A DNA stretch of 59,313 bases, counting the filler, from Nitrospirota bacterium (lineage in GTDB: Bacteria; JACPQY01), in assembly GCA_016180645.1 (NCBI GenBank). It is 5 parts of 5 records of this genome, joined end to end, with 100 filler letters (N's around TTAATTAATTAA, not from the genome) between each part and the next. Parts side by side here need not be neighbours in the genome. Positions count along the whole stretch, not along the records: positions 11,993 to 35,532 come from JACPAV010000048.1; 4 more parts are not named here. One strand, given 5' to 3'. This document shows, piece after piece, positions 6,035-58,282 of the stretch. Positions within the stretch are counted from its first letter, which is position 1. The number at the start of each line of letters is the position of its first letter. The position numbers were made by a program, and so were the translations under genes. Under the pieces are notes generated by a model, which was given only the letters and a program-made list of their open reading frames with translations, was not told the DNA's origin and did not search any database.

Positions 6035-6134
6035 NNNNNNNNNNNNNNNNNNNNNNNNNNNNNNNNNNNNNNNNNNNNTTAATTAATTAANNNNNNNNNN
6101 NNNNNNNNNNNNNNNNNNNNNNNNNNNNNNNNNN
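6035..6134. other. Artificial contig spacer
   Basis: N-run with central TTAATTAATTAA all-frame stop. Confidence 0.97.
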
Positions 6135-6247
6135 AGATTGAGGCTGGCATAGGGCCCGCCGCTCTTCCCCCCGCGCCGGCCGAGAAAGCCGTGCAGCAGG
6201 CCATCCGCCTTTTTCCATTGCGGGACCTGGAGCCACGTCAAATCCAT
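6135..6247 (-). CDS. pgeF: Peptidoglycan editing factor PgeF / YfiH family, 5' fragment truncated by the contig edge
   Basis: Manual translation MDLTWLQVPQWKKADGLLHGFLGRRGGKSGGPYASLN matches the YfiH N-terminal HGF..R.GG.S..PY.SLNL motif; absent from the ORF track. Confidence 0.8.
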
Positions 6248-6309
6248 ACCCGATAGTTATCGCAACTCCTCCCCCGGCTGCAAGACGGCCGACCGGGTGA
6301 AAAAAACAG

Positions 6310-6339
6310 TTGACAAGCTACAGCCGGACTAAGGAGAAT
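6310..6339 (+). promoter_or_regulatory. Putative sigma70 promoter
   Basis: TTGACA-N18-GAGAAT upstream of ATG 6370. Confidence 0.4.
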
Positions 6340-6369
6340 GACCCAAGCCGTACGGCTGAACGACCCGGC

Positions 6370-8556: not shown

Positions 8557-11500
8557 CTCGAGACGACAAGTTCTCATTTATGCCCGTAGGTAAATACAGC
8601 GGCACGCTCGGATATCCCGGGTTCAAAGCGCTCCTCGCCACCCAGTTCTTAAGCGCCTTCAACGATAACGTCTACAGGATGGTGCTCTCATTGATCGCCT
8701 CCGGCGCCACCGGCGGCGGGGCCAGCGCCCTTGCCCTGGTCGGCGCCGTCTTTATTCTCCCTTCTTTGCTGTTCTCGGGCTATGCGGGACATGCGGCCGA
8801 CGTCTGCAGCAAGCGAACCGTTATCGTCGTCACCAAGGCGGTCGAGGTGGCCGGCATGGGGTTGGCGCTCCTGGCCCTTTTCTCTCAAAGGCTCGAGCTT
8901 ATGCTCCCGGTTCTGTTCCTATTGGCTCTCAATTCTGCCTTTTTCAGCCCGGCTAAATACGGCATCGTGCCGGAGATGCTCGCCGATAAGGATCTTTCCC
9001 GGGCCAACGGGCTTCTGGAGATGAGCACCTTCCTGGCCATCATTCTAGGGACTTCGTTGGGCGGCCTCATATTCGCCAGTTGGAGGGACCGGCCGGAGCT
9101 CATCGGCGTTCTACTCCTTGCGATCTCGCTGGCGGGGGCTCTTGCGAGCCTGAGGATCACCAAGGTCGCTGGTTCCGGGGTCATAAAACCGTTTCGACTT
9201 AATCCCTGGGCTGAGATCGGGCAGGGGATCGGACGGTTGTACGGGGACAGGAGCCTGTGGCTGACGGTCATAGGCATCTCCTATTTTTGGTTTCTGGGCG
9301 CCCTGCTCCAGATGGATATTATCCTCTTTGGCAAAGAGGTGATGGGGCTGGATGACTTGCGAATCGGCTTTCTCCTCACCTTTCTTGCCGCGGGGATCGG
9401 GCTCGGCAGCCTTTTAGCCGGACGTTTATCTGGCGACAAGGTGGAGTTGGGGCTGGTGCCTCTAGGTTCCATCGGCATGGGGATATTCTCCCTTCTCTTG
9501 TCGAACTCCGCCGAATCCTACGGGCAGGCAGCCGCGGCGCTCGCCATGCTCGGGTTGGCGGGCGGCCTGTTCGTCGTCCCGTTAAACGCCTTCCTTCAAC
9601 AGAGGAGCGGGCGCGAGGAGAAAGGCCGGCTAATCGCAACCAACAATTTTCTCAATACGGGCGGGATTCTTCTCGCCTCCGGGCTGCTCTGGGCATTCCG
9701 CGACTGGCTGGAGGTGCCGGCGGACCGGGTCATATTCATCTGCGGTCTCTTCACGCTCACAGCAACGGCCTATGTACTCAGCCTTCTGCCCGACTTTCTC
9801 ATTCGATTCACGCTCTGGATGTTTACCCACACGATCTACAGAATCCGGCTCGTGGGCCAGGAGCATGTCCCTTTCCGCGGGGCTGCGCTGCTTGTGTGCA
9901 ATCACGTCTCCCATGTCGACGGCTTGCTCGTGGGAGCCTGTGTCCAGAGATTCATCCGGTTCATGGTCTACCGGCCTTACTACGAGCTGAAACCGCTCCA
10001 TTGGCTTTTTCGCCTGATGAAAGCAATCCCGGTTTCGGGCAGGAGCCGAAAAGACATTATCGAGTCGTTGGAGCGCGCCCGCGAGGAGCTCCGCCAGGGT
10101 CACGTCGTCTGCATCTTTGCCGAGGGGGCGATCAGCCGGACCGGCAACCTGCTCCCGTTCAAACGGGGGTTCGAGAGAATCGTAGAAGGCATGGACGTGC
10201 CTGTGATCCCGGTGCATCTCGACCGGCTTTGGGGCAGCATCTTCAGCTTCAAAGACGGGCGCTTCTTCTGGAAGTGGCCCGAGCGTCTCCCCTATCCGGT
10301 CACGGTTACCTTCGGCGCCCCTTTGCCATCCAAGGCGACGGCGGAGGAAGTCCGACAGGCGGTTATCGAGCTGGGGTGCGAGGCGGTGAAGATCCGCCGG
10401 ACGCCGCGGGACTTGCTTTCCGCGCGGTTTTTGAGGAGCGCCAAGCGGCGTTGGTTTTTGTTCTGCATGGCCGACTCCACCGGCAGGGAACTGACTTACG
10501 GCAAGGCGCTCACCATCAGCCTGCTCCTCGCGCAGTGGTTGCGAAAAAACGGCGGCGGTGAACGCATGGTGGGGCTCCTTCTACCCGCCTCGATCGCGGG
10601 GGCCCTGGCCAATATCGCTTTGCTCCTCGCCGGCAAGATCCCGGTCAACCTCAACTTTACGGCAGGGAGCGAAGCCATATCCTCGGCGATTAATCAGTGC
10701 AGGATCGAAACCATCCTGGCCTCGCGGACGTTTCTGGCCCGCGCCAAAATCGAAGAAAGGGAAGGGATGGTTTTCCTTGAAGACGTGATGAAACAAATGA
10801 CGCCGTCGGCAAAAGTATCGACCGCCCTCCTGGCGTTCTTCCTTCCGTGCAGGGTGCTTGAAGCCATCTACTACCGCGGGGAGTGGAACCCCGACAGCCT
10901 TGCCACGGTCATCTTCTCCAGCGGGAGCACCGGCGTACCTAAAGGGGTCATGCTCTCCCATCACAACATCCTCTCCAATATCGAAGGGATCGCCCAGCTC
11001 TTTTGGGTGACGTCAAGAGACCGGGTGATGGGGGTGCTGCCGTTTTTCCACTCTTTCGGCTTCACCGGCACGCTATGGTTTCCGCTCCTATCCGGTTTCG
11101 GCGTCGTCTATCATGCCAACCCCATGGACGCCAAGACCATCGGCGAAACGGTATCGACGCGCAAAGCCACCATCTTGATCAGCACGCCTACCTTCTACGG
11201 GGCGTATCTAAAGAGGTGCCCCGCGGAACAGTTCTCCAGCCTCCGTTATGCTATCGCAGGAGCTGAGAAGGTCCCCGACTCGCTGGCAAGGGCGTTTAAA
11301 GAAAAGTATGGGTTGGATCTCCTGGAAGGCTACGGATGCACGGAGATGGCTCCTGTGATCTCGGTCAACATACCGGACGTAACCCACGGTCGGGAGCGGC
11401 AGACCGGCTTCAAGCCTCACACGGCGGGCCATCCCCTGCCCGGCGTGGCCGTGAAGGCCGTGGACCCCACCACCTGGGAAACGATCCCGCCGGGACAGGA

Positions 11501-11892
11501 AGGGCTCCTCCTGGTCAAGGGTCCCAATCGTATGGTCGGCTACTACGGCCAGCCCGAAAAGACCCAAGAGGTCGTTCGCGACGGGTGGTACGTCACAGGA
11601 GATATCGCCTCAATTGACGAAGATGGATTTATCCGTGTCACGGACCGCCTTTCCAGGTTCAGCAAGATCGGAGGCGAGATGGTTCCCCATATCAAGGTGG
11701 AAGAGGCGATGAATCAGATCGTGGGAGATCAGGCCTGCGTGATCACCGCGGTCCCTGATGAACAGAAGGGCGAACGCCTCGTGGCTTTTTATATTCGGAA
11801 CGATATCACGCCGGGGGAGCTTTGGGAAAAGTTAAACCGCACGGACCTTCCCAAGCTTTGGATCCCTAAGCGAGAGAACATCTTCTCCGTCG
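8553..11892 (+). CDS. aas: LplT-type MFS / PlsC acyltransferase / acyl-ACP synthetase fusion, 3' truncated at the contig edge
   Basis: MFS TM helices (TQFLSAFNDN), NHVSHVD and FAEG PlsC motifs, FSSGSTGVPKG AMP-binding motif, EGYGCTE. Confidence 0.92.
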
Positions 11893-11992
11893 NNNNNNNN
11901 NNNNNNNNNNNNNNNNNNNNNNNNNNNNNNNNNNNNTTAATTAATTAANNNNNNNNNNNNNNNNNNNNNNNNNNNNNNNNNNNNNNNNNNNN
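11893..11992. other. Artificial contig spacer
   Basis: N-run with TTAATTAATTAA. Confidence 0.97.
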
Positions 11993-12240
11993 CGCAAGAC
12001 TCGAAAGACATTTCTCTCTCCGGCGTTCACGTGCAACATTCGACGTTCCATCAGCCCCCGCCATGCCATGCGATTAACACACACACACACAGGGAATGTC
12101 AAGCATCCCACAGGAATGTAATCAAGTGGACATGTGATCATGTGGTCAATTGAAGGAAACCAACGCCCCGATCATGGACCGCGAATCAAGGTCGCAAGAA
12201 ACTGCACCTTCCTGGAGCAAGCACACTTTCGTGAGTTGCA

Positions 12241-16015: not shown

Positions 16016-17633
16016 GAAAGCGGCGCGGACCCGCACACCCGATCGACTGAAACGCTACTCCACGATCTCGGATTTGGAGGTCCCGCCCCTTTACACCCAG
16101 GCGGATCTCAAAAAGACGCATCCGGGAAAGGATATCGCACGGCCCGGCCAATTTCCCTATACGCGCGGGATCCATCCGACGATGTACCGCGGCCGCCTGT
16201 GGACCATGCGACAGTTCGCAGGATTCGGTTCTCCGGAGGAGACCAACGGGCGATTCAAGTTCCTTTTGCACAACGGACAGATGGGGCTCAGCACGGCGTT
16301 CGACATGCCCGCCCTCATGGGTTTCGATTGCGACCATCCCCGCGCCCTCGGCGAGGTCGGCCGCGAGGGCGTGGCCGTCTCATCCCTGCGCGACATGGAA
16401 ATTCTCTTCGACGGCATTCCGATCAAGGACGTGACCACCTCCATGACGATCAACTGCACGGCGCCCATCGCGATGGCCATGTACCTGGCGGTCGCGGAGA
16501 AACAGGGCGTGCCGTTCGACCGCGTCGGCGGCACGATCCAAAACGACATGCTCAAGGAGTTCATCGCCCAGAAGGAATGGATGGTCCCGCCCGGGCCTTC
16601 GCTGAAGCTCTGCGTGGACATCATCGAATTCTGCGCGCGACACGTGCCCCGATGGAACCCGGTCTCCATCTCCGGGTACCACATCCGAGAGGCCGGCTCG
16701 ACGGCCATGCAGGAACTCGCGTTCACTCTTTACGACGGAATCACCTACGTCGAGGAAATGCTCAGACGAAAGGTTGCGGTGGACCGATTTGCGCCGCGCC
16801 TTTCCTTCTTCTTCAATCTTCACAGCGATTTCTTCGAGGAGATCGGAAAGCTCCGGGCCGCGCGACGCCTCTGGGCACGCACGATGCGCGACCGGTTCCA
16901 CGCGAAAGACCCGCGTTCCCTGGCGCTTCGCATGCACGCCCAAACGGCGGGCTGTTCGCTCACCGCCCAACAACCCCTGAACAACGTCGCCCGCGTCGCG
17001 CTTCAGGCCATGGCCGGGGTGCTCGGCGGCGTCCAGTCCCTCCACGCCAACTCCATGGACGAAACGCTCGCCCTCCCGACCGAAGAATCCGCCCTCGTTT
17101 CGCTCCGCACGCAACAGATCATCGCCGAAGAGACCGGTGTGACGAATTTCGTGGATCCCCTCGGGGGCAGCTACGCCGTCGAGTCGATGACCGGCGCCCT
17201 CGAACACGGGGCCGTCGACTACTTCCACCGCCTGGACCGCATGGGTGGAATGCTCAGGGCCATCGAACAGGGCTATCCGCAGAGGGAAATCGCCGAGGCC
17301 TCCTATCGGTATCAGCGACAACTCGAAGCCGGGGAAAAGGCGATGGTCGGCGCCAACAAGTACCAGATGGAGGAGCGCCTCAAGATTCCCGTCCTCAAAA
17401 TCGACCCCGAGGTGGAGGAACGCCAGCGCACTCGCCTGGCGGCGGTCCGCCGCGAACGCGATTCTCGGACGGCCCTGCAAAAGCTCACGGACCTCAAAGG
17501 AGCGGCAAAGAGAAACGGCGCCAACCTCATGCCCCACATTCTCGAAGCCGTGAAGGCCTATGCCACACTGGGTGAAATCTCCGACGTTCTCCGCGAAGCC
17601 TACGGCACGTATTCCGATCCCGGCCGCTTCTGA
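16008..17633 (+). CDS. icmA: B12-dependent acyl-CoA mutase large subunit, isobutyryl-CoA mutase type
   Basis: Mutase TIM-barrel motifs; WTMRQFAGF (Phe) and KEFIAQKEW (Gln) specificity residues; no B12-binding domain. Confidence 0.8.
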   Translation: MARKAARTRTPDRLKRYSTISDLEVPPLYTQADLKKTHPGKDIARPGQFPYTRGIHPTMYRGRLWTMRQFAGFGSPEETNGRFKFLLHNGQMGLSTAFDMPALMGFDCDHPRALGEVGREGVAVSSLRDMEILFDGIPIKDVTTSMTINCTAPIAMAMYLAVAEKQGVPFDRVGGTIQNDMLKEFIAQKEWMVPPGPSLKLCVDIIEFCARHVPRWNPVSISGYHIREAGSTAMQELAFTLYDGITYVEEMLRRKVAVDRFAPRLSFFFNLHSDFFEEIGKLRAARRLWARTMRDRFHAKDPRSLALRMHAQTAGCSLTAQQPLNNVARVALQAMAGVLGGVQSLHANSMDETLALPTEESALVSLRTQQIIAEETGVTNFVDPLGGSYAVESMTGALEHGAVDYFHRLDRMGGMLRAIEQGYPQREIAEASYRYQRQLEAGEKAMVGANKYQMEERLKIPVLKIDPEVEERQRTRLAAVRRERDSRTALQKLTDLKGAAKRNGANLMPHILEAVKAYATLGEISDVLREAYGTYSDPGRF

Positions 17634-17636
17634 CGG

Positions 17637-17697
17637 GGATAAACGGTGACAGTATACTCTATTACCTCTTATTAGAGTATACTGTCACCGTTTATCC
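17637..17697. repeat. 25-bp perfect inverted repeat between convergent genes; possible bidirectional terminator or mobile palindrome
   Basis: GGATAAACGGTGACAGTATACTCTA / TAGAGTATACTGTCACCGTTTATCC; a half copy lies at 43147-43173. Confidence 0.85.
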
Positions 17698-17708
17698 AGA
17701 ACCGACGG

Positions 17709-19265
17709 CTACAGCAGGCGCGCCCAGAGCGGCCGCCAGGTCTCGAAGTTCTTCTGGAGACGGAGGAGGACCGAATGGCTTTCCGAAACTTTTTCCCCGG
17801 TCGACCTCTTCACGCCCTCGGCCCAGAGATCGAAGCTGACGAAGGCCGCCGCGCCTTCTACATTCACGTTCGCGCCCGAGAACGTCACACTGAAGCTTTC
17901 CAACCTGTTCCGCGCCTGCGGCAGCAGCGCTCGCAGATCATCCGAAGAGAGGCTGTTCTGATCGGGCGCCCAGTCCGACCGGACGCCCTGGAGCCGGAAA
18001 TCCGATCCCGCGGAGGCCAAACATCGGCCCGGCGTGAGGGATGAGATTTCCACGCGGCAGGTGTCGAGCCACCGGAGGATCGCGGCCCTCTCCGCCTGGG
18101 GGTCTGCCTTCGACGCGCCCGACTCGTCCTGCGTCAGCTTCTGCTCCGGTCTATCGGGCCCTTTCTCCGGCTCGCCTCCCGGCGTTTCCTTCCCGGGCGC
18201 AACCGCCGGCTCCCCCGTCTTGACCGTCTCCACCTCGGCTGGGGACACTCCCTTCGTCCCAGACGTTCCGCCTGCCGCTTGCCGGTTCCCGCGCGATGGC
18301 TCCTGCGGCGCGCCTCTCGCGCCCTCCCGCGGAGCCCCGCCCGCCGGGACCTCCCCCGGTCTCTTGCGAGGCTCTCTCCCCTCACGCTTCGATGCCTGTT
18401 CCATGCGCGTTCCCTCTCGGCGAGACAAGCGTGACTCCCGCGAAGCCCGCATCCGTTCTCTAGCCGAGGGGCGATCCCCCCGGCCGAACAGTCTTCCTCC
18501 CTCCTGACGGACATCGGGACCCCGCCGCGCCTCCCTCCATCGGTCGGCCGCACCGGGCGGCCTATCGGGGGTGGCCGGCTTGAAGTACTCGATGCGTTCC
18601 AAGATGCCCAGCTTCTCCATCCCGGTTTCAGGGATGCTGCGAGGCTCAGGCGGACGGTCCTTTGCCACATCCACTTCCTGCATCGGGCCGAGAACAATCG
18701 GCCGGTCCGGAGCCGATCGAGACGCAACGCGAACGGAGCCCTCGAGCACGGATACCCTGGTCGAACCCCGCATGGCCTCCACCAGGAAGGAGGTCCCACG
18801 AACTCCCGCCACGGCCGTCCGAGTGGCGACCAAGAGATCGAAACCGTCGAGGAAGCGGGCCACCACCGCCAATTTGCCCTCGGCCAGATCCATGACATAC
18901 CGGCTCAGGCCCTCTTCCCGCCGCCCCGTGATCTCCAAGGTGGTGTTTTCTCCGATGCGAACATAGTTCCGTTGGCCGAGAAGGAGGTCAACATAGGCCC
19001 CCGGGCCCGTTTCGATGACTTCACCGTTGTACACCGGGGTTGAGAGAGAGACGTTCCGCCACTGAACCGCCTCCCGGGCCCGCACGCGAACCGGCCCGGA
19101 AACCATGAGCACGGAGTACAAGTCGGATACGTCTCGAGCCTTCAGGAAGGCCTTCTCCGAGGAACCCAGGAAACCCGTCGATCGATTCCAAACGGAAACG
19201 ACGACGATGCCGACCACCAGGCCGATCCCCAGGAGACCGAGGAGGCCGGGCACCCCTTTGCGCAT
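17709..19265 (-). CDS. Membrane-anchored FecR-domain protein with disordered linker and C-terminal NTF2/SnoaL-like domain
   Basis: N-terminal TM helix; GEVIETG...VRIGENT...T.TAVAGVRGTSF..VSVLEGSV FecR motifs; C-terminal helix plus curved-sheet pattern. Confidence 0.75.
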   Translation of the reverse strand: MRKGVPGLLGLLGIGLVVGIVVVSVWNRSTGFLGSSEKAFLKARDVSDLYSVLMVSGPVRVRAREAVQWRNVSLSTPVYNGEVIETGPGAYVDLLLGQRNYVRIGENTTLEITGRREEGLSRYVMDLAEGKLAVVARFLDGFDLLVATRTAVAGVRGTSFLVEAMRGSTRVSVLEGSVRVASRSAPDRPIVLGPMQEVDVAKDRPPEPRSIPETGMEKLGILERIEYFKPATPDRPPGAADRWREARRGPDVRQEGGRLFGRGDRPSARERMRASRESRLSRREGTRMEQASKREGREPRKRPGEVPAGGAPREGARGAPQEPSRGNRQAAGGTSGTKGVSPAEVETVKTGEPAVAPGKETPGGEPEKGPDRPEQKLTQDESGASKADPQAERAAILRWLDTCRVEISSLTPGRCLASAGSDFRLQGVRSDWAPDQNSLSSDDLRALLPQARNRLESFSVTFSGANVNVEGAAAFVSFDLWAEGVKRSTGEKVSESHSVLLRLQKNFETWRPLWARLL

Positions 19266-19306
19266 GCGTCGCTACCAGCCGGCGGCGGGGTCTGGATTCA
19301 TGACGC

Positions 19307-21856
19307 TCAAACCTCCGCGGGGTAGTAGGACCCGGTCTTCGGGTAGTACGAGAGTTTGACGCCTTCGCCCACGTTCTGCCTTGTGTGATTCAGGATGACG
19401 CCGGCGACCGGCGCGTGAGCCCGCCGAAGCAGATCGATGCCGCGAAGGAAGAGGCTCTGAGGGGTCTGGCCCGCGGCGTAGACCAGCGTAACGAAATCCA
19501 CCAACCGGCTCAGCATGAGCGTGTCGCTCACGCGGAGCAGCGGGGGAGAGTCGAAGAGGACGATATCGAATTCATTGCGGAGGTTGTCCACCAGTGTCGA
19601 AGCCGCCTCGCGCTCGAAGTGACCGTTGTAGCCCGCCAGCTCGGCTTCGCTTCGGATCCTTCCCGGCAGGTAGGAAAGATTCGGAAGCGGCGTTTGCACG
19701 ATAGCCTTCTGGAACGACAGAGTGCCCTCCAACACCTCGAGCAGCCCCGGAAGGTCTTCCATGCCCAACTCCTTGTCCAGTGTGGGATGCCGCACGTTCG
19801 CGTTGACGATGAGCGTCCGACAGCCGGACTGCGCATACACGGCGCCCAAGCCCAGCGTCAGAGTGGATTTCCCTTCGCCCGAGGCGCAGCTCGCCATCAG
19901 GATGGCGCGATGCTTCTTGCCGTCCGAGGCCGAGTCGAGATTGACTTTGACCATCCTGCACAGGTCGCCCATCTCCACGCGGTGACGCCGATCCGCGGGA
20001 GACAGTTCATCGGGCGACTTCAGGAGATCGAGGGGCCGCTGGGTCACATGTCGCACGACGCCCAGCACTTTGATCCCGGAAGCTTCGATCTCGTCGAGAT
20101 GTTCCACCGCCGGGTTCAGGGCTTCCAGCGTAAAAACCAAGCCCATGAACAGCACGATGGACAGCAGAAGCACGCTCGGCAGGTCTCTCCGGGGCCGCGG
20201 CAGGACCGTCAGGCGAGCCGAGGCCGCTTCCCTGAGCACCACGATGCTGGAGGAGATGTCCGACAGGGCCAAATCCACCGCCGCAAGCTGTTTCTTGAAA
20301 TTCAAATAGATCTCCTCTTTGATGTCGAGATCGTTGAGATAGAATCTTTCCTTGGATGGATCGAGTCCCAGCGCCGCAGCCTTCCGCCTCAGCTCTCCCA
20401 GTTCCTTTTCCTTGGCTTGGATGCGGCGGTCCGATTGCTCCAGACGCGTTTGCCAGGTCTTCCATTCCGGCTTGAGCGGCGCCGCAGGCATGGCTGGGGA
20501 CGATGAAGCCGCCTTCCTCGCCAGCGCGAGGCCGGCCTCCACGACCTTGCCCCAATCGGCCACCACCAGCCGCTCGCCGATTTCGTCCCCACGCCGGACC
20601 CTCAGAAGCCAGGCGCCGGCCGGAACGAGAAAACTGAACCGGCCATCGCCATCCGTCACCGCCGGCGGCCCGCCGCCGATCTCGACCTCCGCATCCGCCA
20701 CGGGTTCGCGCCGGGAGGAAACCGCGCGGAATACCTGGCCGTCTATTCGGGCCATCCGATCCGACCCCGTCGCTCCTTCCCGAAGGGCGATGCTCGCCCA
20801 CTTCTCCGTCGTCGCCTCCACCTGTCGGGTCATCTTGCCGAGCTTGTATCCACTCGCCGAGACATAGACTTCGTGCGTGCCGGACGGCAGATCGAACGCG
20901 AAGTCCCCCTTCTCATCCGTGTAGGCGACCTTCCCGGACGGACGGGTCGTCACCACGGCCCCGGCCACGCGGGGGCCTCCGAGGGCACCGGTGAACACCA
21001 CACCCCTCAGAACGCCCGTCGGGCCCGACCCCTCCTCCGATAGGATCGGGGTGATCGCGCCGCCGGCCTTCTTGAGCGATTGGAGCGCCTTCACGCTTCT
21101 TCCCAGAGAGTCCAAGAGAGGAAACCCGGGCTGGAACCTCCGGCTGAGATCGGCTCTTTCTTTCTCCAATCGGGCAATCTCGTCGTCGATCTCCTTCACC
21201 ACGTCCATCCGGGCCTGCCGGAGTCCCTCCACATCCTTGCTGCCGGCCTCAATCCGTTGGACCGCCGCTTGCAGCGACCGGCCCTCTTCCAACTGTTTCT
21301 CGTACCCTTCAATCTCGGCCATCAAGTACTCGCGCTGGCCGACCTTGCTCTGCCTTTTCTGATTCGCATCGAAAATCTGGAACGTCTGAATCAGCGCGTT
21401 CAACAACTTGACGACCAACTCCGGATCCTGGGCCCGCAGCTCGATCCTGAGAATGTTGGTTTTCCCCTTCCGCTCGACACGCAGCCCTTTTCGGGTCTCC
21501 TCGATCAGACGCTCCCGCTCGGCGGGCGGGTCGGACGGATCGACCACGCCGAGTTTTTCCAGGACCTGCCCCAAGAGGGCGTGGCTCCTGAGGAGGTCGG
21601 CCTGCGTCTCCAGCACTTCGTCCGTGGGCGTTCCCACCCCCAGGCGTCCCAACACGGCGCTGATCTTCTCGCCGGCCGGCGTTTCGACGAGGTATTGCAC
21701 CTCGGCTTCAGACTCGTACTGTTTGGGCATGTACAACCAATAGACGCCGTAGAGACCGAAGGTGATGATCAACAGGAGAGGGAGCAGCTTCCAGTGCTTG
21801 GCTAGGACGTGGAGCTGACGGCGCAGCAACTCGTTGGAATCGTTTTTCGCCGCCAT
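19307..21856 (-). CDS. Wzc-like polysaccharide co-polymerase / BY-kinase with two inserted carboxypeptidase-regulatory-like beta-sandwich domains
   Basis: Two TM helices, P..YESEAEV, coiled coils, Walker A GEGKST, Walker B IVLFDSPP, C-terminal Tyr cluster. Confidence 0.82.
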   Translation of the reverse strand: MAAKNDSNELLRRQLHVLAKHWKLLPLLLIITFGLYGVYWLYMPKQYESEAEVQYLVETPAGEKISAVLGRLGVGTPTDEVLETQADLLRSHALLGQVLEKLGVVDPSDPPAERERLIEETRKGLRVERKGKTNILRIELRAQDPELVVKLLNALIQTFQIFDANQKRQSKVGQREYLMAEIEGYEKQLEEGRSLQAAVQRIEAGSKDVEGLRQARMDVVKEIDDEIARLEKERADLSRRFQPGFPLLDSLGRSVKALQSLKKAGGAITPILSEEGSGPTGVLRGVVFTGALGGPRVAGAVVTTRPSGKVAYTDEKGDFAFDLPSGTHEVYVSASGYKLGKMTRQVEATTEKWASIALREGATGSDRMARIDGQVFRAVSSRREPVADAEVEIGGGPPAVTDGDGRFSFLVPAGAWLLRVRRGDEIGERLVVADWGKVVEAGLALARKAASSSPAMPAAPLKPEWKTWQTRLEQSDRRIQAKEKELGELRRKAAALGLDPSKERFYLNDLDIKEEIYLNFKKQLAAVDLALSDISSSIVVLREAASARLTVLPRPRRDLPSVLLLSIVLFMGLVFTLEALNPAVEHLDEIEASGIKVLGVVRHVTQRPLDLLKSPDELSPADRRHRVEMGDLCRMVKVNLDSASDGKKHRAILMASCASGEGKSTLTLGLGAVYAQSGCRTLIVNANVRHPTLDKELGMEDLPGLLEVLEGTLSFQKAIVQTPLPNLSYLPGRIRSEAELAGYNGHFEREAASTLVDNLRNEFDIVLFDSPPLLRVSDTLMLSRLVDFVTLVYAAGQTPQSLFLRGIDLLRRAHAPVAGVILNHTRQNVGEGVKLSYYPKTGSYYPAEV

Positions 21857-21860
21857 GCCG

Positions 21861-23363
21861 CTACTGCTGAAGTATCCGCACCTGGGAGGCTACACCGGCG
21901 CCGGCCGAGAGGGGCGTGAGAAGCCGACCGAGAAAGTCGAGCGCGTCCGACGTCGTACTCTCGGGAACGAACAAGACGTCCCCGTTGTTCAATTCCAAAT
22001 CCTGCCGGAGATCGCCCTTGCTCACCACGCGATCGAGGTTGAGCGCGATCACCTGCTGGTCCGCCGAACCATAGTGACGCACCACCTTGGTGCTGCTCAG
22101 AACGGCGCCGAATTTGGCCTGGTCCGCCAGCGCCAATGCCTGCATCGCCGTGATGCGGCCGGGCTGCCGATACAAACCCGGCCGGGTCACCATCCCCAGC
22201 ACGTACACGCCCACTTCCTGGCTGTGGGGAATGTAAAGGGTGTCGCCGGGCTCGAGCCGCGCCGAAGGCGCCGCGCCGGGCAGGAAGAGTTCCGTATTCA
22301 GATCCACCCGCAGTTCCTCGCCCGTCTTTCGAACGACCGTGGCTTCCGAGAGACTCGCGCCGATCGTCAGTCCGCCCGCTTGCGTGACCACCTCACGGAC
22401 GCTCAACCAGCCTCTTGAACCCACGGGGAAGACGGCGGGTTTGGCCACGGCGCCGTGGACCCTCACCGGCCCCGGCGACCCGACGATCAGGATGTCATCC
22501 GGCTGCACCGAAAGGTTGTATTTGAACTCCGACGTCCCGAACAACCGGCCCAGCGGGAACTGGATGCTCGTTCCCCCTCGAATGATCGACACGTTCTGCG
22601 CCAGAGTGGCGTCATAATTCCATCCCGCCGACATCAGCACTTCCAGCAAGGTCCCCTGCCCGAGAATGGGCGTTCGGCCGGCCTTGCTCACGTCGCCCAT
22701 CACCGTCACCATCCTCTGCCCGGCCTTCTTGATCGCCACGGAAATCTTGGGTTTTGCCACATACCGTCGGATGGCCCGCTCCCAATTCTCCCGAAAAACA
22801 TCGAGCGTCACTCCCTCGGCCTGAATGGACGGGCCGAACGGCACCGCCACGTTGCCATCCGCAAGGACGACGAAGTCGCCGGAAAACTCCGCGTACCCGG
22901 CCACCTCCACCTCGATCACATCCTCCTTGTATAAGACGTATTCGGCGGCCCCGCGGCGAGTCGCCTTCTGAAAGGAGGAGATCTCCGCCCACGTTGCCCC
23001 CTCCGCTCCGCTCCGGGAACGACGAACAGAACCGTCATCAGGTCCTTGCGTCGCACCGGCCAAGTCCCGGCCGGGCGCGGGGGCGGATTCGACAGGCTGT
23101 GCCCCGGCGGTCGGGAGCGGCTGCGCCGCCAGAGGCAAGAGATCGGGCGGTTTGCGAACAGCTCCGGCACACGAGCCAAACATAACAAAGGAAGAGCACA
23201 CGATCGCGAAGACGGGCGGGATCTGCAACAGTCGCCTACCTGAACATGCACAGACCTTCCGGGGAACGGGGGACGATTTTCGCCCCTCCCGCTGCGCTGA
23301 CACTACTCGCCTATCATAACCCCTCCCTAATGCCATCCCAAGGTAGGGTAGGTCAACAATCAT
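21861..23363 (-). CDS. Wza-like (OPX) export protein with Poly_export and three SLBB domains (start uncertain)
   Basis: Y.L...DVIEVEV...V..DG.V..PF; repeated V.V.G.V..PG and L..GD.L..P; possible lipobox FGSC. Confidence 0.82.
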   Translation of the reverse strand: MIVDLPYLGMALGRGYDRRVVSAQREGRKSSPVPRKVCACSGRRLLQIPPVFAIVCSSFVMFGSCAGAVRKPPDLLPLAAQPLPTAGAQPVESAPAPGRDLAGATQGPDDGSVRRSRSGAEGATWAEISSFQKATRRGAAEYVLYKEDVIEVEVAGYAEFSGDFVVLADGNVAVPFGPSIQAEGVTLDVFRENWERAIRRYVAKPKISVAIKKAGQRMVTVMGDVSKAGRTPILGQGTLLEVLMSAGWNYDATLAQNVSIIRGGTSIQFPLGRLFGTSEFKYNLSVQPDDILIVGSPGPVRVHGAVAKPAVFPVGSRGWLSVREVVTQAGGLTIGASLSEATVVRKTGEELRVDLNTELFLPGAAPSARLEPGDTLYIPHSQEVGVYVLGMVTRPGLYRQPGRITAMQALALADQAKFGAVLSSTKVVRHYGSADQQVIALNLDRVVSKGDLRQDLELNNGDVLFVPESTTSDALDFLGRLLTPLSAGAGVASQVRILQQ

Positions 23364-23460
23364 TGTTTGTCAACATCTCCACCGCAGGATCGGGCCATAG
23401 ATGGTGACCGTATCGATCCATGAAGGATGGTCGTCCCAGCCGACCCGTTGTTGACCTCCT

Positions 23461-23476
23461 TGTGATCCCAATCACA
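23461..23476. promoter_or_regulatory. CRP/FNR-family binding site
   Basis: TGTGA-TCCCAA-TCACA, a perfect TGTGA-N6-TCACA match in the divergent intergenic region. Confidence 0.6.
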
Positions 23477-23512
23477 GACATGGGATTGGAAACATGATTC
23501 AATCCCCGGCCC

Positions 23513-25075
23513 ATGGGGGCAATAAAGGGAGCCGGATCCATTAGACGTTGGGCGACACAGGGCGTCGCCGCCCTCGCCCTTCTGGCCGGTGGGGTCTTGC
23601 TCCTCAACGGCCTCAAGTGGATCGGTCATCGTCGGGCCCAGAATCTGCTTTCGCAATACTCGCAGATCGGGCGGGAAGGCGCTCCGGCCCCCGTTCTCAT
23701 CCTTAGCCATGCAGGGCCCGTAGACTTTTCCGGTCCAACCTACGATGGATGGCAAACCGTCGCGATGAGGAGCCCCCTCACGTCAGCCAATACGGTCCGG
23801 ACCGGCACTTGGGGCACCATCGACCTTGCGCTCGACCGTCACGTCGTCCTCCGGATCGCGCCGAATTCGACCGTTCAATTCGCTTCCATGGTTCGCGATC
23901 TCTCAAACCGCATCGAGCTGGTGGAGATCGCCATGAAAACGGGGCAGGTGATCAGCGTCATCGGAAACCTGAAAGACGGGGCGCGCTTCTCCATCAAGAC
24001 GCCCACGGCCACGGTGGGGGTTCGCGGGACGGTATTCATGGTCGAGTCAACTCCGGAAGGCACGATCGTATCAACCCTGAACGGGACGGTGGAAGTCACC
24101 ACGCCCGCCGATCCCGGGCAGCCGCTCGATGTGGTCCCCGGGGAACGGCTTGAGGTGGCGGCCCGCCTCAGCCCCACTACGGGCCGCCGCGAGATCATGG
24201 GCCGATATACGGGTGTGCCGCCGGAGATCCGCAAACAGATGAGCCAAGCCGTGCGCGAGAACGCGTTTGCGAAACCCCGACGTCAAGGGGCTTTGATTAA
24301 CGCCATCGATAAGAAGGAGGGGGCGACCGCCCGGCCTCCATCCAGCGGTCGGGACCGGATCGCTCGGGAGCGCCCCGGTTCATTGCGCGCTGAAAAGGGC
24401 CGCCGAATTCAATCGCCGCTTCGCGGAGGCGACGATCGATACAAGAAGCCCGAAAAGCAACGGTCGATGCAACGGCTTTCCGATCTTCGCCTGCAACGGC
24501 CGATGCCTGAATCACCGCTCCGAGTCACCTCGCCGGAAAAGTCGAAATCCACCCGGGAGGAGCCGGCGCCCCCCACAACCGCCGGGCCTCCCAAGGCTGC
24601 GACGCGGCCCTCCGAGCCCGCCGCGGAGGAGCCGGCGAAGGAGAAAGAACAATCGCAGGAGGATGAAGACACGGAAGATCGCCCCGTTCAGGCCGGCGCC
24701 GATACCCTCTCGGCCGAGATGGCCATTCGGGCCATTCTTGATGAATGCCGCGATGCGCTCGAACAGCTCGCGGCCGTTCCATGCCTCTCCCGCTGGACCA
24801 CGCCGGGATTCACGCTGAATGTGAACGGCAAAGTGGTGCCCAACCTGTCGCGAGCCGCGGCCGAACTCTCCCGACTGATCACTTCTCCCTCCGTTTCCAT
24901 GCACGTTCTGACGGTCACCGTCCGGGAGGCCACCGCCATGGCCGTCTTCACCATCGCCGTGGACGCGCGCAAGGCGCAGACGGGCGATGATGTCAGCCGA
25001 CAATTCCTTGTCATCATGGAATTCGCCGGAAGCGACAAGGAGGGGTGGCTGGCCCAGTCCGCGAGCGCCATGTAA
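23513..25075 (+). CDS. Membrane-anchored FecR-domain protein with linker and C-terminal NTF2/SnoaL-like domain (paralog of 17709-19265)
   Basis: TM helix; VRTG..G.IDL...LRIAPNS; IKTPTATVGVRGTVF; same layout and length (520 vs 518 aa). Confidence 0.75.
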   Translation: MGAIKGAGSIRRWATQGVAALALLAGGVLLLNGLKWIGHRRAQNLLSQYSQIGREGAPAPVLILSHAGPVDFSGPTYDGWQTVAMRSPLTSANTVRTGTWGTIDLALDRHVVLRIAPNSTVQFASMVRDLSNRIELVEIAMKTGQVISVIGNLKDGARFSIKTPTATVGVRGTVFMVESTPEGTIVSTLNGTVEVTTPADPGQPLDVVPGERLEVAARLSPTTGRREIMGRYTGVPPEIRKQMSQAVRENAFAKPRRQGALINAIDKKEGATARPPSSGRDRIARERPGSLRAEKGRRIQSPLRGGDDRYKKPEKQRSMQRLSDLRLQRPMPESPLRVTSPEKSKSTREEPAPPTTAGPPKAATRPSEPAAEEPAKEKEQSQEDEDTEDRPVQAGADTLSAEMAIRAILDECRDALEQLAAVPCLSRWTTPGFTLNVNGKVVPNLSRAAAELSRLITSPSVSMHVLTVTVREATAMAVFTIAVDARKAQTGDDVSRQFLVIMEFAGSDKEGWLAQSASAM

Positions 25076-25166
25076 GCCCGTGGATCAGAGCCGTTCTTGA
25101 CATGTGGCGTCTCATTCATCACAATGCCGACCAATTCGCATGGCGGTTTTGAAACAGGAGATAACC

Positions 25167-26636
25167 ATGAGTAGGAGCATCAAATCTTCTTGGAGCCTTC
25201 CACGGACGATGGGCGTTCTGGTCATCGTCGGGCAGGCCATGGCGGGATACGCCCGCGCGGCCGACAAGACCGCCCCGCCCGCTGCCGAGGAGCCGGTTGC
25301 CCTCTCCGCTCCCAAAACAACCGAGAGTCGTCGATCGGACGACCTCCAGGAAGGAGGAAGTGCCGCGAGAGGGCAGGAGCCCGGAGCGGCCGACCTCCAG
25401 GAAGGAGGAAGTGCCGCGAGAGGGCACCCTGAAGGAATCGATGGAATCGCGCAGGGTACTTCGCAGCCTCCCGGAGCGGCCGACCCCTTCAAAATTCTAA
25501 GAGATCAAATCCGCGCTTTTGAAACGGCTCCGCAGGTCAGCGACTACAAGTTTCTCAAGGGCGATCTCGTCGAAGTCAGAGTGCTCGGCTACGGCGAACT
25601 GTCCAAAACCTACACGGTGTCCGAGGATGGCACACTCGTGGTCGGCCTCGGCGATCCCGTCATGGCCACGGGCAAGACGGCCGGACAGGTGAAGGAGGTT
25701 CTGGAGCGCGAACTTGGTCGGTTTCTTCAGAAACCCAAGGTTTCCGTCTTCCTCGCCAAGCCGGGCGAGCGACGCGTCTTCGTCATCGGCGACCTCCCGA
25801 GGGCCGGCCAGGTGGCGCTCGTCGGCCAAGGCACCCTTCTGGAAACCCTCACACAGGCCGGCTGGAAATACGACCCTTTCGGGGGCCATCAGGCGCGGCT
25901 CGTCCGGCAGGACCGTACACTCACCGTAGACGTGGCCGCCATCATGCGGGCGGGATCCACCGACCTCAATATCCGTTTGAAGCCGGACGACATCGTGATT
26001 CTCAACTCCCCCGATCCCGTGGTGGTCATCGGGGAGGTCCGTAAGCCGGACCGCTACCCCCTCGGCGAACGCGCATCCATCACGGTTCGCGAAGTGATCG
26101 CCCGCAGCCAGGGCATCACCGAAAAAGCCGATCTGACCTCCGCCAAGATCATTCACAAGACCGGCACGGAGGAGCGGCTCGACCTCAATCGATACCTCTT
26201 TCCCCAGCCAGGCGACGCCTCGTCGGATGTGGTTCTTCAGGGGGGTGACACCCTGTACGTCCCACAAGGCGGCGAGATCGGCGTCTTCGTGCTCGGAATG
26301 GTCGGTCGACCGGGCTACTACCGCCAGGCCACGGGGCTTACGGTGCTCCAGGCGCTCGCCCTCGGCGATGAGCCCCAGTTCGGAGCGAAGCTCTCCCACG
26401 CGCGCCTCGTGAAGGGCTATTCGAGCGGGAATCCCCGAGTGGTCAGGGTCAATCTCGATCACCTGGTGTACAAGGGGGACATGAGCCAAAACCTGGCGAT
26501 GGAAAACGGCGACGTGCTGTACATCCCCGAGACCACCACGTCCGACGTCCTGGACTTCCTCGGCCGCCTGCTTTCCCCGCTCAATCTTGGATTCACGGCC
26601 GGCGTGGCCGCCGCGACCGCCATCGGCGCGAAATAG
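25167..26636 (+). CDS. Wza-like (OPX) export protein with three SLBB domains
   Basis: AGGAG RBS, signal peptide ending ARA, YKFLKGDLVEVRV; C-terminus TTSDVLDFLGRLLSPL shared with the paralog. Confidence 0.82.
   Translation: MSRSIKSSWSLPRTMGVLVIVGQAMAGYARAADKTAPPAAEEPVALSAPKTTESRRSDDLQEGGSAARGQEPGAADLQEGGSAARGHPEGIDGIAQGTSQPPGAADPFKILRDQIRAFETAPQVSDYKFLKGDLVEVRVLGYGELSKTYTVSEDGTLVVGLGDPVMATGKTAGQVKEVLERELGRFLQKPKVSVFLAKPGERRVFVIGDLPRAGQVALVGQGTLLETLTQAGWKYDPFGGHQARLVRQDRTLTVDVAAIMRAGSTDLNIRLKPDDIVILNSPDPVVVIGEVRKPDRYPLGERASITVREVIARSQGITEKADLTSAKIIHKTGTEERLDLNRYLFPQPGDASSDVVLQGGDTLYVPQGGEIGVFVLGMVGRPGYYRQATGLTVLQALALGDEPQFGAKLSHARLVKGYSSGNPRVVRVNLDHLVYKGDMSQNLAMENGDVLYIPETTTSDVLDFLGRLLSPLNLGFTAGVAAATAIGAK
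25340..25426 (+). repeat. 36-bp exact direct repeat with 51-bp period, encoding DLQEGGSAARG twice
   Basis: CGACCTCCAGGAAGGAGGAAGTGCCGCGAGAGGGCA at 25340 and 25391. Confidence 0.9.
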
Positions 26637-26639
26637 TCC

Positions 26640-28727
26640 ATGGAACCCAACCGCTCGTCCGATCTCGATACGCCGGAAATGTTCATGCGACTCTCGGGCA
26701 TCCTGGCCAAGCACGTCAAGCTCATGGTCGTCACCACGCTGCTGATTGCCATCGGGGTCGCCGGCGCCTATGTGTCCATACCGAAGATCTACGAAGCGAC
26801 GGTGCAAATCCAGTACCTCACGGAAACGCCCGAAGAGGAGGCCTCCCAGGTATTCGAGCGGATCGGAAGGCTGCTCGGCTCCACGGGAGAACAGGCGCTC
26901 GACACACAGATACAGATCATTACCAGCCAGGCCATCCTTAAGGAGAGCCTGGAGAAGCTCGCCGTCATCCCCGCCGGAGCCAGGCCGGAAACGGCCCAAG
27001 GTATCGTGCAGAGATTCCAGCGCGACGTCACGGCCCGAAAAATCGGCAAGACGAATATTTTCGAGCTCGTCGTGCGGGCTCCCAAACCCGAATTCGCGGT
27101 TCAGGTCGCCACGACCATCACGGACGTGTACCAATTGAACGATCTGCGGACGCGTCAGCGCACCGACCAGTCCCTCCGCCGATACCTGCTCGAACAGATC
27201 GACAGCCTCGAAAAGAAGATCCTCGAGCAGAAGACGTTGATGGATTCGTTCGGCGACACGGAGTCGCTCCAAGGAGAACTGCGAAACCTCATTCAGCAGA
27301 AGGAGCAGACGCTGAAGTCGCTTGCCGAGGAGAAGAAGAACCTCGAAATCGAGCGCCGGGCGCTCCTCGCCCGCTACACTCGCCGGCACCCCAAGGTCAT
27401 GGAAATCGACGCGACGCTCGCCTACGTGAACCGCATCCTGGGCGGCAAAACGGTGGGAGATCCGGCTTCCCAACTCATCAGCGCGCGCCCGGAGGTGTTG
27501 GACCGCTTCGTCAAACTTCAGAGCCGATACCAGCTTACGATGCGCGACCTGGCCCACACCCAACGCAAGATCGAAGACGGCAAGAAACGCGCCTTGGAGG
27601 GAGGCTCTCCATACGAAGACAAGGAATTTCTTCAGCGTGAACTGAGTCTCAATCAAGAAATCTACGGGAACATGAAGCGCCGCCTGTCGCAGGTCGAACT
27701 CACGCTGGGCAACAATTCGGAAAACGTCATTCTACTCCAGGAACCTACCCTGCCCCGCCGCCCGGTGAAACCGGATCCGAAGCGGTTCCTCATGCTCGGG
27801 CTCCTGCTCGTCGTTTTGCTTCCAATCAGCTTCACGATGATCGCGGAAGCCATGGATTCTTCGGTCGGGACGATACCCGACCTTGAACGGGTTGCAAGCG
27901 TGGGCGTTCTCGGAGGCGTGCCCTTTGTCCGCAATTTCGCCATGCCCCACACGGTCGAACCCGCGAACGGAAACGGCCACGCTCCCCTCGATCCGGCTTG
28001 GGCCGGATTCCAGGAGGCCTTCAGGACGATCCGCACCAAGATCGATCTCCAAAATGGCAGGAAACAGGGACGCACCTTCCTGGTTACCAGTACTCAGCCT
28101 CAGGAGGGGAAGAGCGTCGTGTCCTGTAGCATTGCCCGGGCATTTGCCGAGGCCGGCCTTTCAGTGCTCCTCATCGACTGCAATCTGCGGCATCCCTGCA
28201 TCAACCGCTATTTGGACCTGCCCCTCGAGCCGGGTATTCTTCCCGCCCTTCAGAACGGTGAGGACTGGCGGCGAGGCGTTCTCCGCATGAAAAACCCCTC
28301 CCGTTTCCACATTCTCCCCGCCGGAGGGGCCATTCGGAATCCCTTGCCCCTGATTGAATCCGCCCGATTCGGCCAGATCCTTGAGGAGGTGCGGTCAAGC
28401 TTCGACGTGGTCATCATGGACAGCCCGCCGGCCCACATGGTGTCCGACGCGGTGGCCATTTCCAGGCAGACCGATGGCGTGATTGTCGTCTACTCCTCCG
28501 GAGAAACGGCGCGCACCGCCTTCAAGCGCAATCTCGATCAATTCAAACTCGCCAAGGTCCCCCTTCTCGGTCTGGTCATGAATCACAAGAAACCCATCAG
28601 ACTGGCCATGTACCCCCAGTACGCCTACTACGCCTACGGCTACCCCACGGATAAGCCTCACAAGGGGAAGAGAACAGAACGCGTCGGGCACAGGCGATCG
28701 TCCAGCCAAGCGGCATCCCTCCACTAG
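26640..28727 (+). CDS. Wzc-like polysaccharide co-polymerase / BY-kinase
   Basis: PKIYEATVQI, YTRRHPKV, P..PVKP before TM2, QEGKS, IDCNLRHP, VIMDSPP, Tyr cluster YPQYAYYAYGY. Confidence 0.85.
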   Translation: MEPNRSSDLDTPEMFMRLSGILAKHVKLMVVTTLLIAIGVAGAYVSIPKIYEATVQIQYLTETPEEEASQVFERIGRLLGSTGEQALDTQIQIITSQAILKESLEKLAVIPAGARPETAQGIVQRFQRDVTARKIGKTNIFELVVRAPKPEFAVQVATTITDVYQLNDLRTRQRTDQSLRRYLLEQIDSLEKKILEQKTLMDSFGDTESLQGELRNLIQQKEQTLKSLAEEKKNLEIERRALLARYTRRHPKVMEIDATLAYVNRILGGKTVGDPASQLISARPEVLDRFVKLQSRYQLTMRDLAHTQRKIEDGKKRALEGGSPYEDKEFLQRELSLNQEIYGNMKRRLSQVELTLGNNSENVILLQEPTLPRRPVKPDPKRFLMLGLLLVVLLPISFTMIAEAMDSSVGTIPDLERVASVGVLGGVPFVRNFAMPHTVEPANGNGHAPLDPAWAGFQEAFRTIRTKIDLQNGRKQGRTFLVTSTQPQEGKSVVSCSIARAFAEAGLSVLLIDCNLRHPCINRYLDLPLEPGILPALQNGEDWRRGVLRMKNPSRFHILPAGGAIRNPLPLIESARFGQILEEVRSSFDVVIMDSPPAHMVSDAVAISRQTDGVIVVYSSGETARTAFKRNLDQFKLAKVPLLGLVMNHKKPIRLAMYPQYAYYAYGYPTDKPHKGKRTERVGHRRSSSQAASLH

Positions 28728-35532: not shown

Positions 35533-35632
35533 NNNNNNNNNNNNNNNNNNNNNNNNNNNNNNNNNNNNNNNNNNNNTTAATTAATTAANNNNNNNNNNNN
35601 NNNNNNNNNNNNNNNNNNNNNNNNNNNNNNNN
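35533..35632. other. Artificial contig spacer
   Basis: N-run with TTAATTAATTAA. Confidence 0.97.
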
Positions 35633-58182: not shown

Positions 58183-58282
58183 NNNNNNNNNNNNNNNNNN
58201 NNNNNNNNNNNNNNNNNNNNNNNNNNTTAATTAATTAANNNNNNNNNNNNNNNNNNNNNNNNNNNNNNNNNNNNNNNNNNNN
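58183..58282. other. Artificial contig spacer
   Basis: N-run with TTAATTAATTAA. Confidence 0.97.

Follow-up and report, generated by a model that had tools for sequence, protein, structure and literature searches.

A Wzc-like protein from an uncultured groundwater bacterium carries two extra beta-sandwich domains at the apex of its periplasmic arm, where the homologous protein of Escherichia coli has only a short loop. The protein, P0001, is encoded in a stretch of 59,313 nucleotides (the window) from Nitrospirota bacterium GCA_016180645.1 (labelled G000), a draft metagenome-assembled genome of 65 contigs and 4.7 Mb that is 97% complete and belongs to a deep-branching lineage. That the insert consists of two transthyretin-like CarboxypepD_reg domains on flexible linkers is close to certain in our judgement. 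We further propose, at a little under an even chance, that this tethered apex module remodels or specialises the junction between the Wzc-like protein and its Wza partner. Window positions 11993–35532 are one whole contig of 23,540 bases (C6), on which every locus of G000 discussed here sits, apart from two side observations. Filler blocks (44 N, 12 bases, 44 N) occupy positions 6035–6134, 11893–11992, 35533–35632 and 58183–58282; as the window is made of several contigs joined by these blocks, gene neighbourhood across them is not real.

The insert is apparent from comparison of P0001 with a paralog, P0003 (695 amino acids (aa), window 26640–28727), which aligns only to P0001 residues 6–246 and 469–848. 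The intervening residues 247–468 (222 aa) face 42 aa in the paralog. Pfam family PF13620 (CarboxypepD_reg) matched P0001 in two stretches, the best at residues 283–356 (E 2.3e-13, 50.8 bits, cut-off 32.3), and PF13715 matched at 38.5 bits (cut-off 32.2); P0003 gave no CarboxypepD_reg match at E≤1. An earlier note on this DNA, made from the sequence alone, had described two repeats of CarboxypepD_reg or transthyretin-like type in the arm of P0001 that are missing from this paralog. The motifs it quoted are present in window positions 20520–21025 (minus strand), which encode residues 278–445, and the absence from the paralog and the family assignment are both borne out, the latter by the profile scan that the note had proposed and by the models and structure matches below. 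The gene and the parts of its insert are as follows.

19307..21856, minus strand: P0001, a Wzc-like polysaccharide co-polymerase of type PCP-2a with a BY-kinase domain, 849 aa, with the apex insert (open reading frame (ORF); Pfam, NCBIfam and Foldseek)
21020..21064, minus strand: flexible linker 1, residues 265–279, Gly/Ser/Pro-rich, with a predicted local distance difference test score (pLDDT) below 50 at 267–277; 33% and 20% identical to the orthologs
20777..21019, minus strand: beta-sandwich domain 1 (D1), residues 280–360, CarboxypepD_reg / transthyretin-like, present in all three orthologs
20519..20752, minus strand: beta-sandwich domain 2 (D2), residues 369–446, the second PF13620 stretch, present in P0001 and P0020 but not in P0021
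20471..20518, minus strand: flexible linker 2, residues 447–462, Ala/Ser/Pro-rich, pLDDT below 50 at 447–460

The full-length AlphaFold model of P0001 was made from an alignment of 95 sequences, namely P0001, P0003 and 93 of the first 101 matches of the HMMER search described below, eight short fragments or long fusions having been excluded. It has a pLDDT of 85.7 and contains all-beta domains at residues 280–358 and 369–446. Modelled alone (residues 275–450, four-sequence alignment), the insert reached a pLDDT of 90.0 and a predicted template modelling score (pTM) of 0.83. The domains were compared with 48,161 representative structures of the PDB. D1 superposed on the transthyretin-like domain of duck carboxypeptidase D (1qmu_A; Z 13.6, root-mean-square deviation (rmsd) 1.6 Å over 80 residues), on that of human carboxypeptidase D (5aq0_B; Z 13.4) and on the N-terminal extension (NTE) domains of SusC (9hfj_A, Z 12.2; 6ytc, Z 10.0), the rmsd for the two carboxypeptidase D matches being 1.6–1.7 Å over 80–81 residues. 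D2 superposed on 3e8v_A (Z 12.2, rmsd 1.5 Å over 74 residues), and gave a weak phmmer match to the RagA N-terminus. Both are seven-stranded beta-sandwiches that can be superposed on solved members of the family, and the residues conserved in D1 are the core Gly, Pro and hydrophobic positions of the family. A Foldseek search with the insert returned 98 PDB matches at E≤0.001. Matches spanning both domains had an rmsd of 11–20 Å, and the D1–D2 pair is therefore not arranged like the linear tandems of pilins, SdrD and TIE. A recent tandem duplication of one domain into the other was considered and rejected: the local match between D1 and D2 covers only 25 residues, 10 of them identical, and corresponds to the family core motif.

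The earlier note had allowed that the segment might fail to model as a beta-sandwich, or that it might be a misassembly. Modelling gave two confident beta-sandwiches. A chimeric assembly or a frame error could be suspected in a metagenome-assembled draft of 65 contigs, but the probability that the insert is such an artefact is negligible. The reading frame is continuous. Logan contigs from three groundwater-metagenome runs span the whole P0001 gene with 0 differences, and in a fourth run a 1066-base Logan contig spans 20351–21416, both insert junctions included, again with 0 differences. The sequencing runs listed for this sequence comprised none of RNA. This support is only partly independent, since all four runs come from one study and three are possibly the source of the assembly. 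Stronger evidence comes from the orthologs in two other assemblies, where the insert is in frame, and the confident fold prediction also speaks against an artefact.

To find relatives, 1.84 billion cluster representatives were searched with HMMER, giving 58,812 matches at E≤0.001, of which the best 150 or so were inspected. Two top matches, P0020 and P0021, stand far off the rest. P0020 (871 aa), which sits on a 9-kb Logan contig, is 45% identical to P0001 in a single stretch over residues 6–842. P0021 (780 aa) is 37% identical and is the ortholog in a related genome, G001; its NCBI annotation reads 'MAG: AAA family ATPase [Nitrospirae bacterium]'. When residues 247–468 were used as a phmmer query against 168 collected proteins, the insert was found only in P0001, P0020 (E 1.7e-35) and P0021 (E 1.4e-13). 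Of 149 matches, the 29 that reach 770 aa or more were scanned with Pfam; CarboxypepD_reg was detected in P0020 (two stretches, 56.5 bits) and in P0021 (one, 32.7 bits) alone, and no further carrier of the insert was found among the best 150 or so of the 58,812 matches. Of the two domains P0021 carries only D1, behind which comes a linker of about 30 aa rich in Pro and Ala. The segment matching P0001 residues 240–480 has a median length of 46 aa across the 95 aligned sequences (5th–95th percentile 26–84); P0001 itself has 241 aa there, P0020 has 261 and P0021 has 171. The extra length of other long homologs is due to terminal fusions (FHA, OmpA, SPOR or Wza) or to longer helices, and in the one other homolog with a long apex, P0032 (149 aa, helical), no Pfam domain was found in the apex. 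The terminal fusions seen in P0106, P0111, P0147, P0154 and P0167 comprise a C-terminal Wza (Poly_export plus SLBB), an N-terminal FHA, a C-terminal SPOR (two proteins) and a C-terminal OmpA domain.

No further ortholog came from a scan of the full set of GTDB representative genomes, where the only hits were the G001 contig and one unrelated kinase match. Scans of metagenome loci, with the ortholog alignment and P0020 as queries, gave no relative. Word-index searches, an insensitive method, returned 16 matches to the whole of P0001, none with the insert except P0001 itself, and, for the insert alone, one protein with multiple CarboxypepD_reg domains (P0169). There was no usable match in the ESM Atlas, and we found no literature linking Wzc with carboxypeptidase regulatory domains. 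Nine open frames of 696–860 aa in G000 match the kinase half of P0001, which alone among them has the insert. From these searches P0001 appears to be a rare variant of the Wzc-type co-polymerase, represented by three sequences from one lineage. Sampling of that lineage is very thin, since G001 is the sole same-family genome among 40 relatives drawn from species representatives and the other 39 share only the 'same domain'.

After the insert columns had been cut from the 95-row alignment, its first 45 rows served to build a tree by the quick search of IQ-TREE, rooted at the midpoint and with SH-aLRT values as the only measure of support. The three insert-bearing proteins formed one clade (SH-aLRT 100), the insert-less paralogs P0003 and P0022 grouped together (SH-aLRT 100), and the two groups were sisters (SH-aLRT 96). 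The insert has a single origin in this tree, after the gene duplication; the simplest history would be duplication of a whole gene cassette, described below, in an ancestor of the lineage, followed by one gain of the insert. D2 would then have been gained on the branch of P0001 and P0020, or else lost from P0021. D1 is 44% identical to its counterpart in P0020 and 35% to that in P0021, and D2 is 37% identical to that in P0020; the corresponding values are 49% (P0020) and 40% (P0021) for the kinase and 48% and 37% for the base domain. The insert domains thus diverge at the pace of the rest of the protein, which argues for purifying selection.

Outside the insert, P0001 has the organisation of a Wzc-type polysaccharide co-polymerase and is a predicted tyrosine autokinase, with the following parts.

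21551..21826, minus strand: Wzz domain and first transmembrane (TM) helix (TM1), residues 11–102 (PF02706, 25.6 bits, cut-off 25.5; model helix 24–42)
21065..21424, minus strand: ascending helices of the periplasmic arm, residues 145–264 (AlphaFold helices 145–240 and 246–264, pLDDT 83–98)
20201..20470, minus strand: descending arm helices, residues 463–552 (AlphaFold helices 463–495 and 500–532)
19367..19921, minus strand: BY-kinase domain, residues 646–830, with Walker A motif GEGKS including K663 (PF13614, 32.5 bits)
19319..19351, minus strand: C-terminal tyrosine cluster Y837, Y838, Y844 and Y845 (sequence; Y838 and Y845 invariant in the orthologs)

The Wzz match exceeds its cut-off only marginally and is supported by the fold match to Wzc chains. 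As in PCP-2a proteins, hydrophobic TM helices (24–42, and 555–580 for TM2) flank a mainly helical periplasmic part, and the P-loop kinase has both the Walker A lysine and the C-terminal tyrosine cluster. Pfam places the AAA_31 kinase domain at residues 651–777. TIGR01007 scored 85.7 bits on the kinase, under its cut-off of 108, and by Foldseek the kinase fold matches the CapAB, Wzc and Etk kinase domains (TMt 0.83–0.89). Across the 95 homologs G662 is invariant, and K663 is found in at least 90%. No match to the GNVR region (PF13807) before TM2 was found in P0001 at E≤1, and P0003 scored 25.2 bits against a cut-off of 27.7; the insert-bearing orthologs show a conserved ALSDISS motif in its place. 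GNVR is frequent, not obligatory, in Pfam, and some of the scanned Wzc-like homologs also lack it. At both ends of P0001 there are matches to NCBIfam models of chain-length determinants and of tyrosine autokinases for polysaccharides, all under cut-off, and the E. coli Wzc equivalog model NF008568 gave 69.5 bits against a cut-off of 1068. P0001 is a superfamily member but no ortholog of E. coli Wzc.

In the full-length model, the insert lies at the apex of the arm, a part that is normally helical in Wzc proteins, between the ascending helix 246–264 and the descending helix 463–495, with low-confidence linkers on both sides. The descending helices open with a W-x-x-W motif (W465, W468) that is invariant in the three insert-bearing orthologs. 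The best Foldseek matches of the whole model were E. coli Wzc chains (9r68_I, E 1.5e-24; 7nhr_A), including chains of the Wza–Wzc complexes of 2026. In the first structures of such complexes, both of 2026, the inner- and outer-membrane parts of the export channel are joined solely by a short apex loop, which is essential. According to PMC12881504 and PMC13469938, this loop of the Wzc arm docks onto the D1 (PES) ring of Wza. As described in the first of these, the Wza–Wzc ('AC') interface is loop-mediated, with K332, Y334, T335 and H338 of Wzc against D99, E102 and Y155 of Wza, and a quadruple mutant of the Wzc interface residues abolished colanic acid production (PMC12881504). Residues 480–829 of P0001 align with residues 349–702 of E. 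coli K12 Wzc (phmmer), an offset that puts K332–H338 at the insert's C-terminal edge, about 11–17 residues before P0001 residue 480. Judged by helix topology and by this offset, the insert probably lies at the position of the E. coli Wza-docking loop, and would bring about 19 kDa of folded domains to the point that, in E. coli, links both membrane halves of the capsule or exopolysaccharide (EPS) export channel.

We suggest that, in an octamer such as Wzc forms, the linker-tethered D1–D2 pair inserted at the apex loop would place 16 domains at the Wzc–Wza junction, probably as an outer collar round the base of the cognate Wza, P0004. An outer position is favoured because the lumen of the junction, given for E. 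coli as about 36 Å (PMC12881504), has no room for the octamer's sixteen domains of 9 kDa each. The collar could add to, strengthen or specialise docking to Wza, and could keep the insert-bearing translocon apart from the co-resident insert-less sister pair; the W-x-x-W motif may belong to the same adapted apex. The two paralog pairs match each other in arm helices and in Wza domain content, so the insert is not needed to bridge the periplasm and is not a length spacer. A bolder version, to which we give a low probability, is that the tethered 16-domain collar replaces or supplements the loop-to-PES contact, makes the two Wza–Wzc channels orthogonal and possibly provides a landing place for the C-terminal domain of a FecR-like protein, forming a trans-envelope exporter of three components, seen to date in this deep-branching groundwater lineage alone.

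Several observations weigh against the proposed role at the junction. The mapping of the E. coli apex relies on helix topology and on an alignment that starts 11–17 residues past the loop. Four Wza sequences compared showed no group-specific indel in the PES domain that would mark an altered interface. D2 is dispensable in one ortholog (P0021), and with its flexible linkers the module may form no fixed structure. The fold is also very common in G000, with 59 PF13620 matches, and has many uses, so that fold alone is silent on function. If the domains do contact Wza, they would show how co-polymerase and translocon specificity is encoded and how much the junction tolerates, which would be useful for understanding and engineering polysaccharide secretion, and the insert-less sister cassette in the same genome offers a built-in control. 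If they do not, the insert would amount only to a rare arrangement of domains within a lineage that is poorly sampled.

The 59 PF13620 matches, the closest of which is 36% identical, also mean that donor domains were plentiful in G000, and they speak for a second explanation: accretion of a common, stable beta-sandwich in a tolerant surface loop, kept as decoration or as a steric spacer with little specific function. Such a history would fit the variable number of domains (one in P0021, two in P0001 and P0020), the flexible linkers and the variable apex length among the aligned homologs, including the helical outlier of 149 aa. However, D1 has been kept in all three orthologs and diverges like the kinase, the site in E. 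coli is the Wza contact and not a neutral loop, and the addition of 16 domains per octamer to a sealed junction would probably have some effect. We consider accretion alone unlikely.

D1 and D2 might instead be a glycan-binding module, using the prealbumin-like fold in the manner of a carbohydrate-binding module, which holds or guides the nascent polysaccharide or binds peptidoglycan at the Wzc–Wza junction. Carbohydrate-related proteins occur among the structure matches: a rhamnogalacturonan lyase domain (1nkg, Z 10.0) and the 'putative carbohydrate binding' entries 4iyk (Z 8.1) and 3qec (Z 8.0). E. coli Wzc has a glycan-recognising jellyroll at residues 112–204, according to PMC12881504, and the model of P0001 shows only a small alpha/beta base at residues 44–144, which makes a substitute glycan site conceivable. 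The insert-less paralog, however, has neither jellyroll nor insert and is nevertheless conserved. Neither an aromatic platform nor any other motif for binding was identified in the insert, the conserved D1 residues being family core positions, and the best structural matches, carboxypeptidase D and the SusC NTE, are not known glycan binders (PMC7782687). A glycan-binding role is rather unlikely on this evidence.

The remaining explanation involves the neighbouring genes, which are as follows.

21861..23363, minus strand: P0004, Wza-like OPX protein, 500 aa as called, first gene of the insert-bearing cassette (Pfam: Poly_export 48.3 bits, SLBB_2 66.1 bits)
17709..19265, minus strand: P0002, FecR-like protein, 518 aa, third gene of the insert-bearing cassette (PF04773, 52.3 bits)
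23513..28727, plus strand: sister cassette without the insert, with a FecR-like gene (23513–25075), a Wza-like gene (25104–26636) and the Wzc-like gene of P0003 (26640–28727)

The conserved unit is a three-gene cassette of Wza, Wzc and a FecR-like protein. The order is Wza-Wzc-FecR in the insert-bearing cassette, in G001 as in G000, and FecR-Wza-Wzc in the sister cassette. Four nucleotides separate the stop codon of P0004 from the start of P0001, and P0004 is 45% identical to the paralogous Wza at 25104–26636. In G000 the two cassettes diverge from a common 149-bp spacer (window 23364–23512), and in G001 they are on separate contigs. A promoter and terminator scan of 17500–23700 gave nothing exceeding shuffled sequence, and no clear promoter in the spacer. 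P0004 was probably called from a start too far upstream (window 23170–23363): near residue 65 a hydrophobic stretch ends in a lipobox-like FGSC, and the G001 counterpart begins about 50 residues later in the alignment. Beside either cassette there are no glycosyltransferase, Wzx, Wzy or Wzb genes; the flanking genes encode GroEL, lipoate ligase, methylmalonyl-CoA mutase and BamA in G000, and Lon, DUF362, IMPDH, RmlD, GcpE and prolyl-tRNA synthetase in G001.

The earlier note had proposed that the insert is a docking site, possibly for the adjacent FecR domain, by analogy with the binding of FecR to receptor extensions; such docking would yield a complex of three parts with a role in signalling or in the regulation of export. 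In both G000 and G001 the FecR-like gene comes after that of Wzc within one operon. FecR genes lie beside Wzc genes only in these two genomes (two in each) among the 41 searched; the other 39, a small sample of remote relatives, have none within 30 kb, and the nearest pair elsewhere is 32 kb apart, in G005. G000 has three FecR-domain genes, of which two are cassette members. P0002 has an N-terminal TM helix, a periplasmic FecR domain at residues 83–179 (cut-off for PF04773, 24 bits), a disordered linker of about 170 aa rich in Arg, Glu and Pro, and an unassigned C-terminal domain, and the long linker could carry the C-terminal domain up to the arm tip. The layout of TM helix, FecR domain, charged linker and C-terminal domain is shared by the FecR-like proteins at window 17709–19265 and 23513–25075, and by those at 6167–7741 of locus L020 and 3930–5384 of locus L021; the C-terminal domain, of about 125 aa, has two invariant cysteines (C403, C415). 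In P0002 this domain gave no Pfam match and no PDB sequence match (best E-value 1.3).

The insert-less sister cassette, however, has an equivalent FecR-like protein of the same domain layout in both G000 and G001, so the partnership with FecR is independent of the insert. The FecR-like protein is a lineage-specific third member of both cassettes, which speaks against a dedicated docking site. The analogy itself mixes two domains. According to PMC7782687, FecR-type anti-sigma proteins contact the STN domain (PF07660) of the receptor, a different fold, and the NTE, which is CarboxypepD_reg-like, 'has a different role'. A FecR-type anti-sigma regulator combines an anti-sigma part with an extracytoplasmic function (ECF) sigma factor and an STN receptor, and P0002 lacks this combination: only about five residues precede its TM helix, leaving no cytoplasmic anti-sigma domain; it has no second FecR-family domain and no other Pfam match below E 0.01 or over cut-off; and neither a sigma factor nor a TonB receptor is encoded among 13 ORFs scanned on C6 (three small ORFs lay outside the scan). 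Docking of P0002 by the insert is thus very unlikely. The domain and fold assignment of the earlier note stands; the docking inference drawn from it is not supported.

Two further proteins are encoded on other contigs of the window. Positions 35676–43031 encode a protein of 2451 aa in which a bacterial Ig-like domain occurs together with repeats of NHL/teneurin-like type and about 14 RCC1 repeats. Positions 8553–11948 encode a 1131-aa fusion of a major facilitator superfamily (MFS) transporter, an acyltransferase and an AMP-binding domain, a layout that we take to resemble lysophospholipid transporter/acyltransferase-synthetase (LplT-Aas type) fusions.

Among known systems, the best NCBIfam scores were obtained with models of XrtA/PEP-CTERM-type EPS export: 68.4 bits for the N-terminal half of P0001 (TIGR03007), 81.1 for the kinase (TIGR03018) and 121.4 for Wza (TIGR03027). 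These are far under the curated cut-offs (278.85, 230.65 and 180), and co-polymerase and kinase are fused in P0001. The closest structural counterpart of D1, carboxypeptidase D's seven-stranded transthyretin-like domain (Z 13.4–13.6), is 22% identical; it is appended to a catalytic domain, whereas D1 lies inside a helical hairpin. The SusC/RagA NTE (9HFJ, 6YTC; PF13715) has the same fold and is likewise a small periplasmic domain flexibly tethered to an envelope machine. Unlike the NTE, the P0001 domains are followed by no TonB box, plug or barrel, P0001 has no Plug or TonB_dep_Rec match, and the insert is not an NTE; the analogy gives no mechanism, as the NTE itself has no established function (PMC7782687).

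E. coli Wzc (7NHR, 9R62–9R6B) is about 12–13% identical to P0001 over the structural alignment. The two share the Wzz N-terminal domain, two TM helices, a long helical periplasmic arm and a C-terminal P-loop tyrosine kinase with a tyrosine cluster, and both genes adjoin a gene for a Wza-type OPX protein. Unlike the E. coli protein, P0001 has no jellyroll in its model and no GNVR Pfam match, and its cassette includes the FecR-like third gene, with no Wzb, Wzx, Wzy or glycosyltransferase genes nearby. In place of the short, Wza D1-binding apex loop of the E. coli protein, P0001 has about 200 aa, made up of two linkers and two beta-sandwiches.

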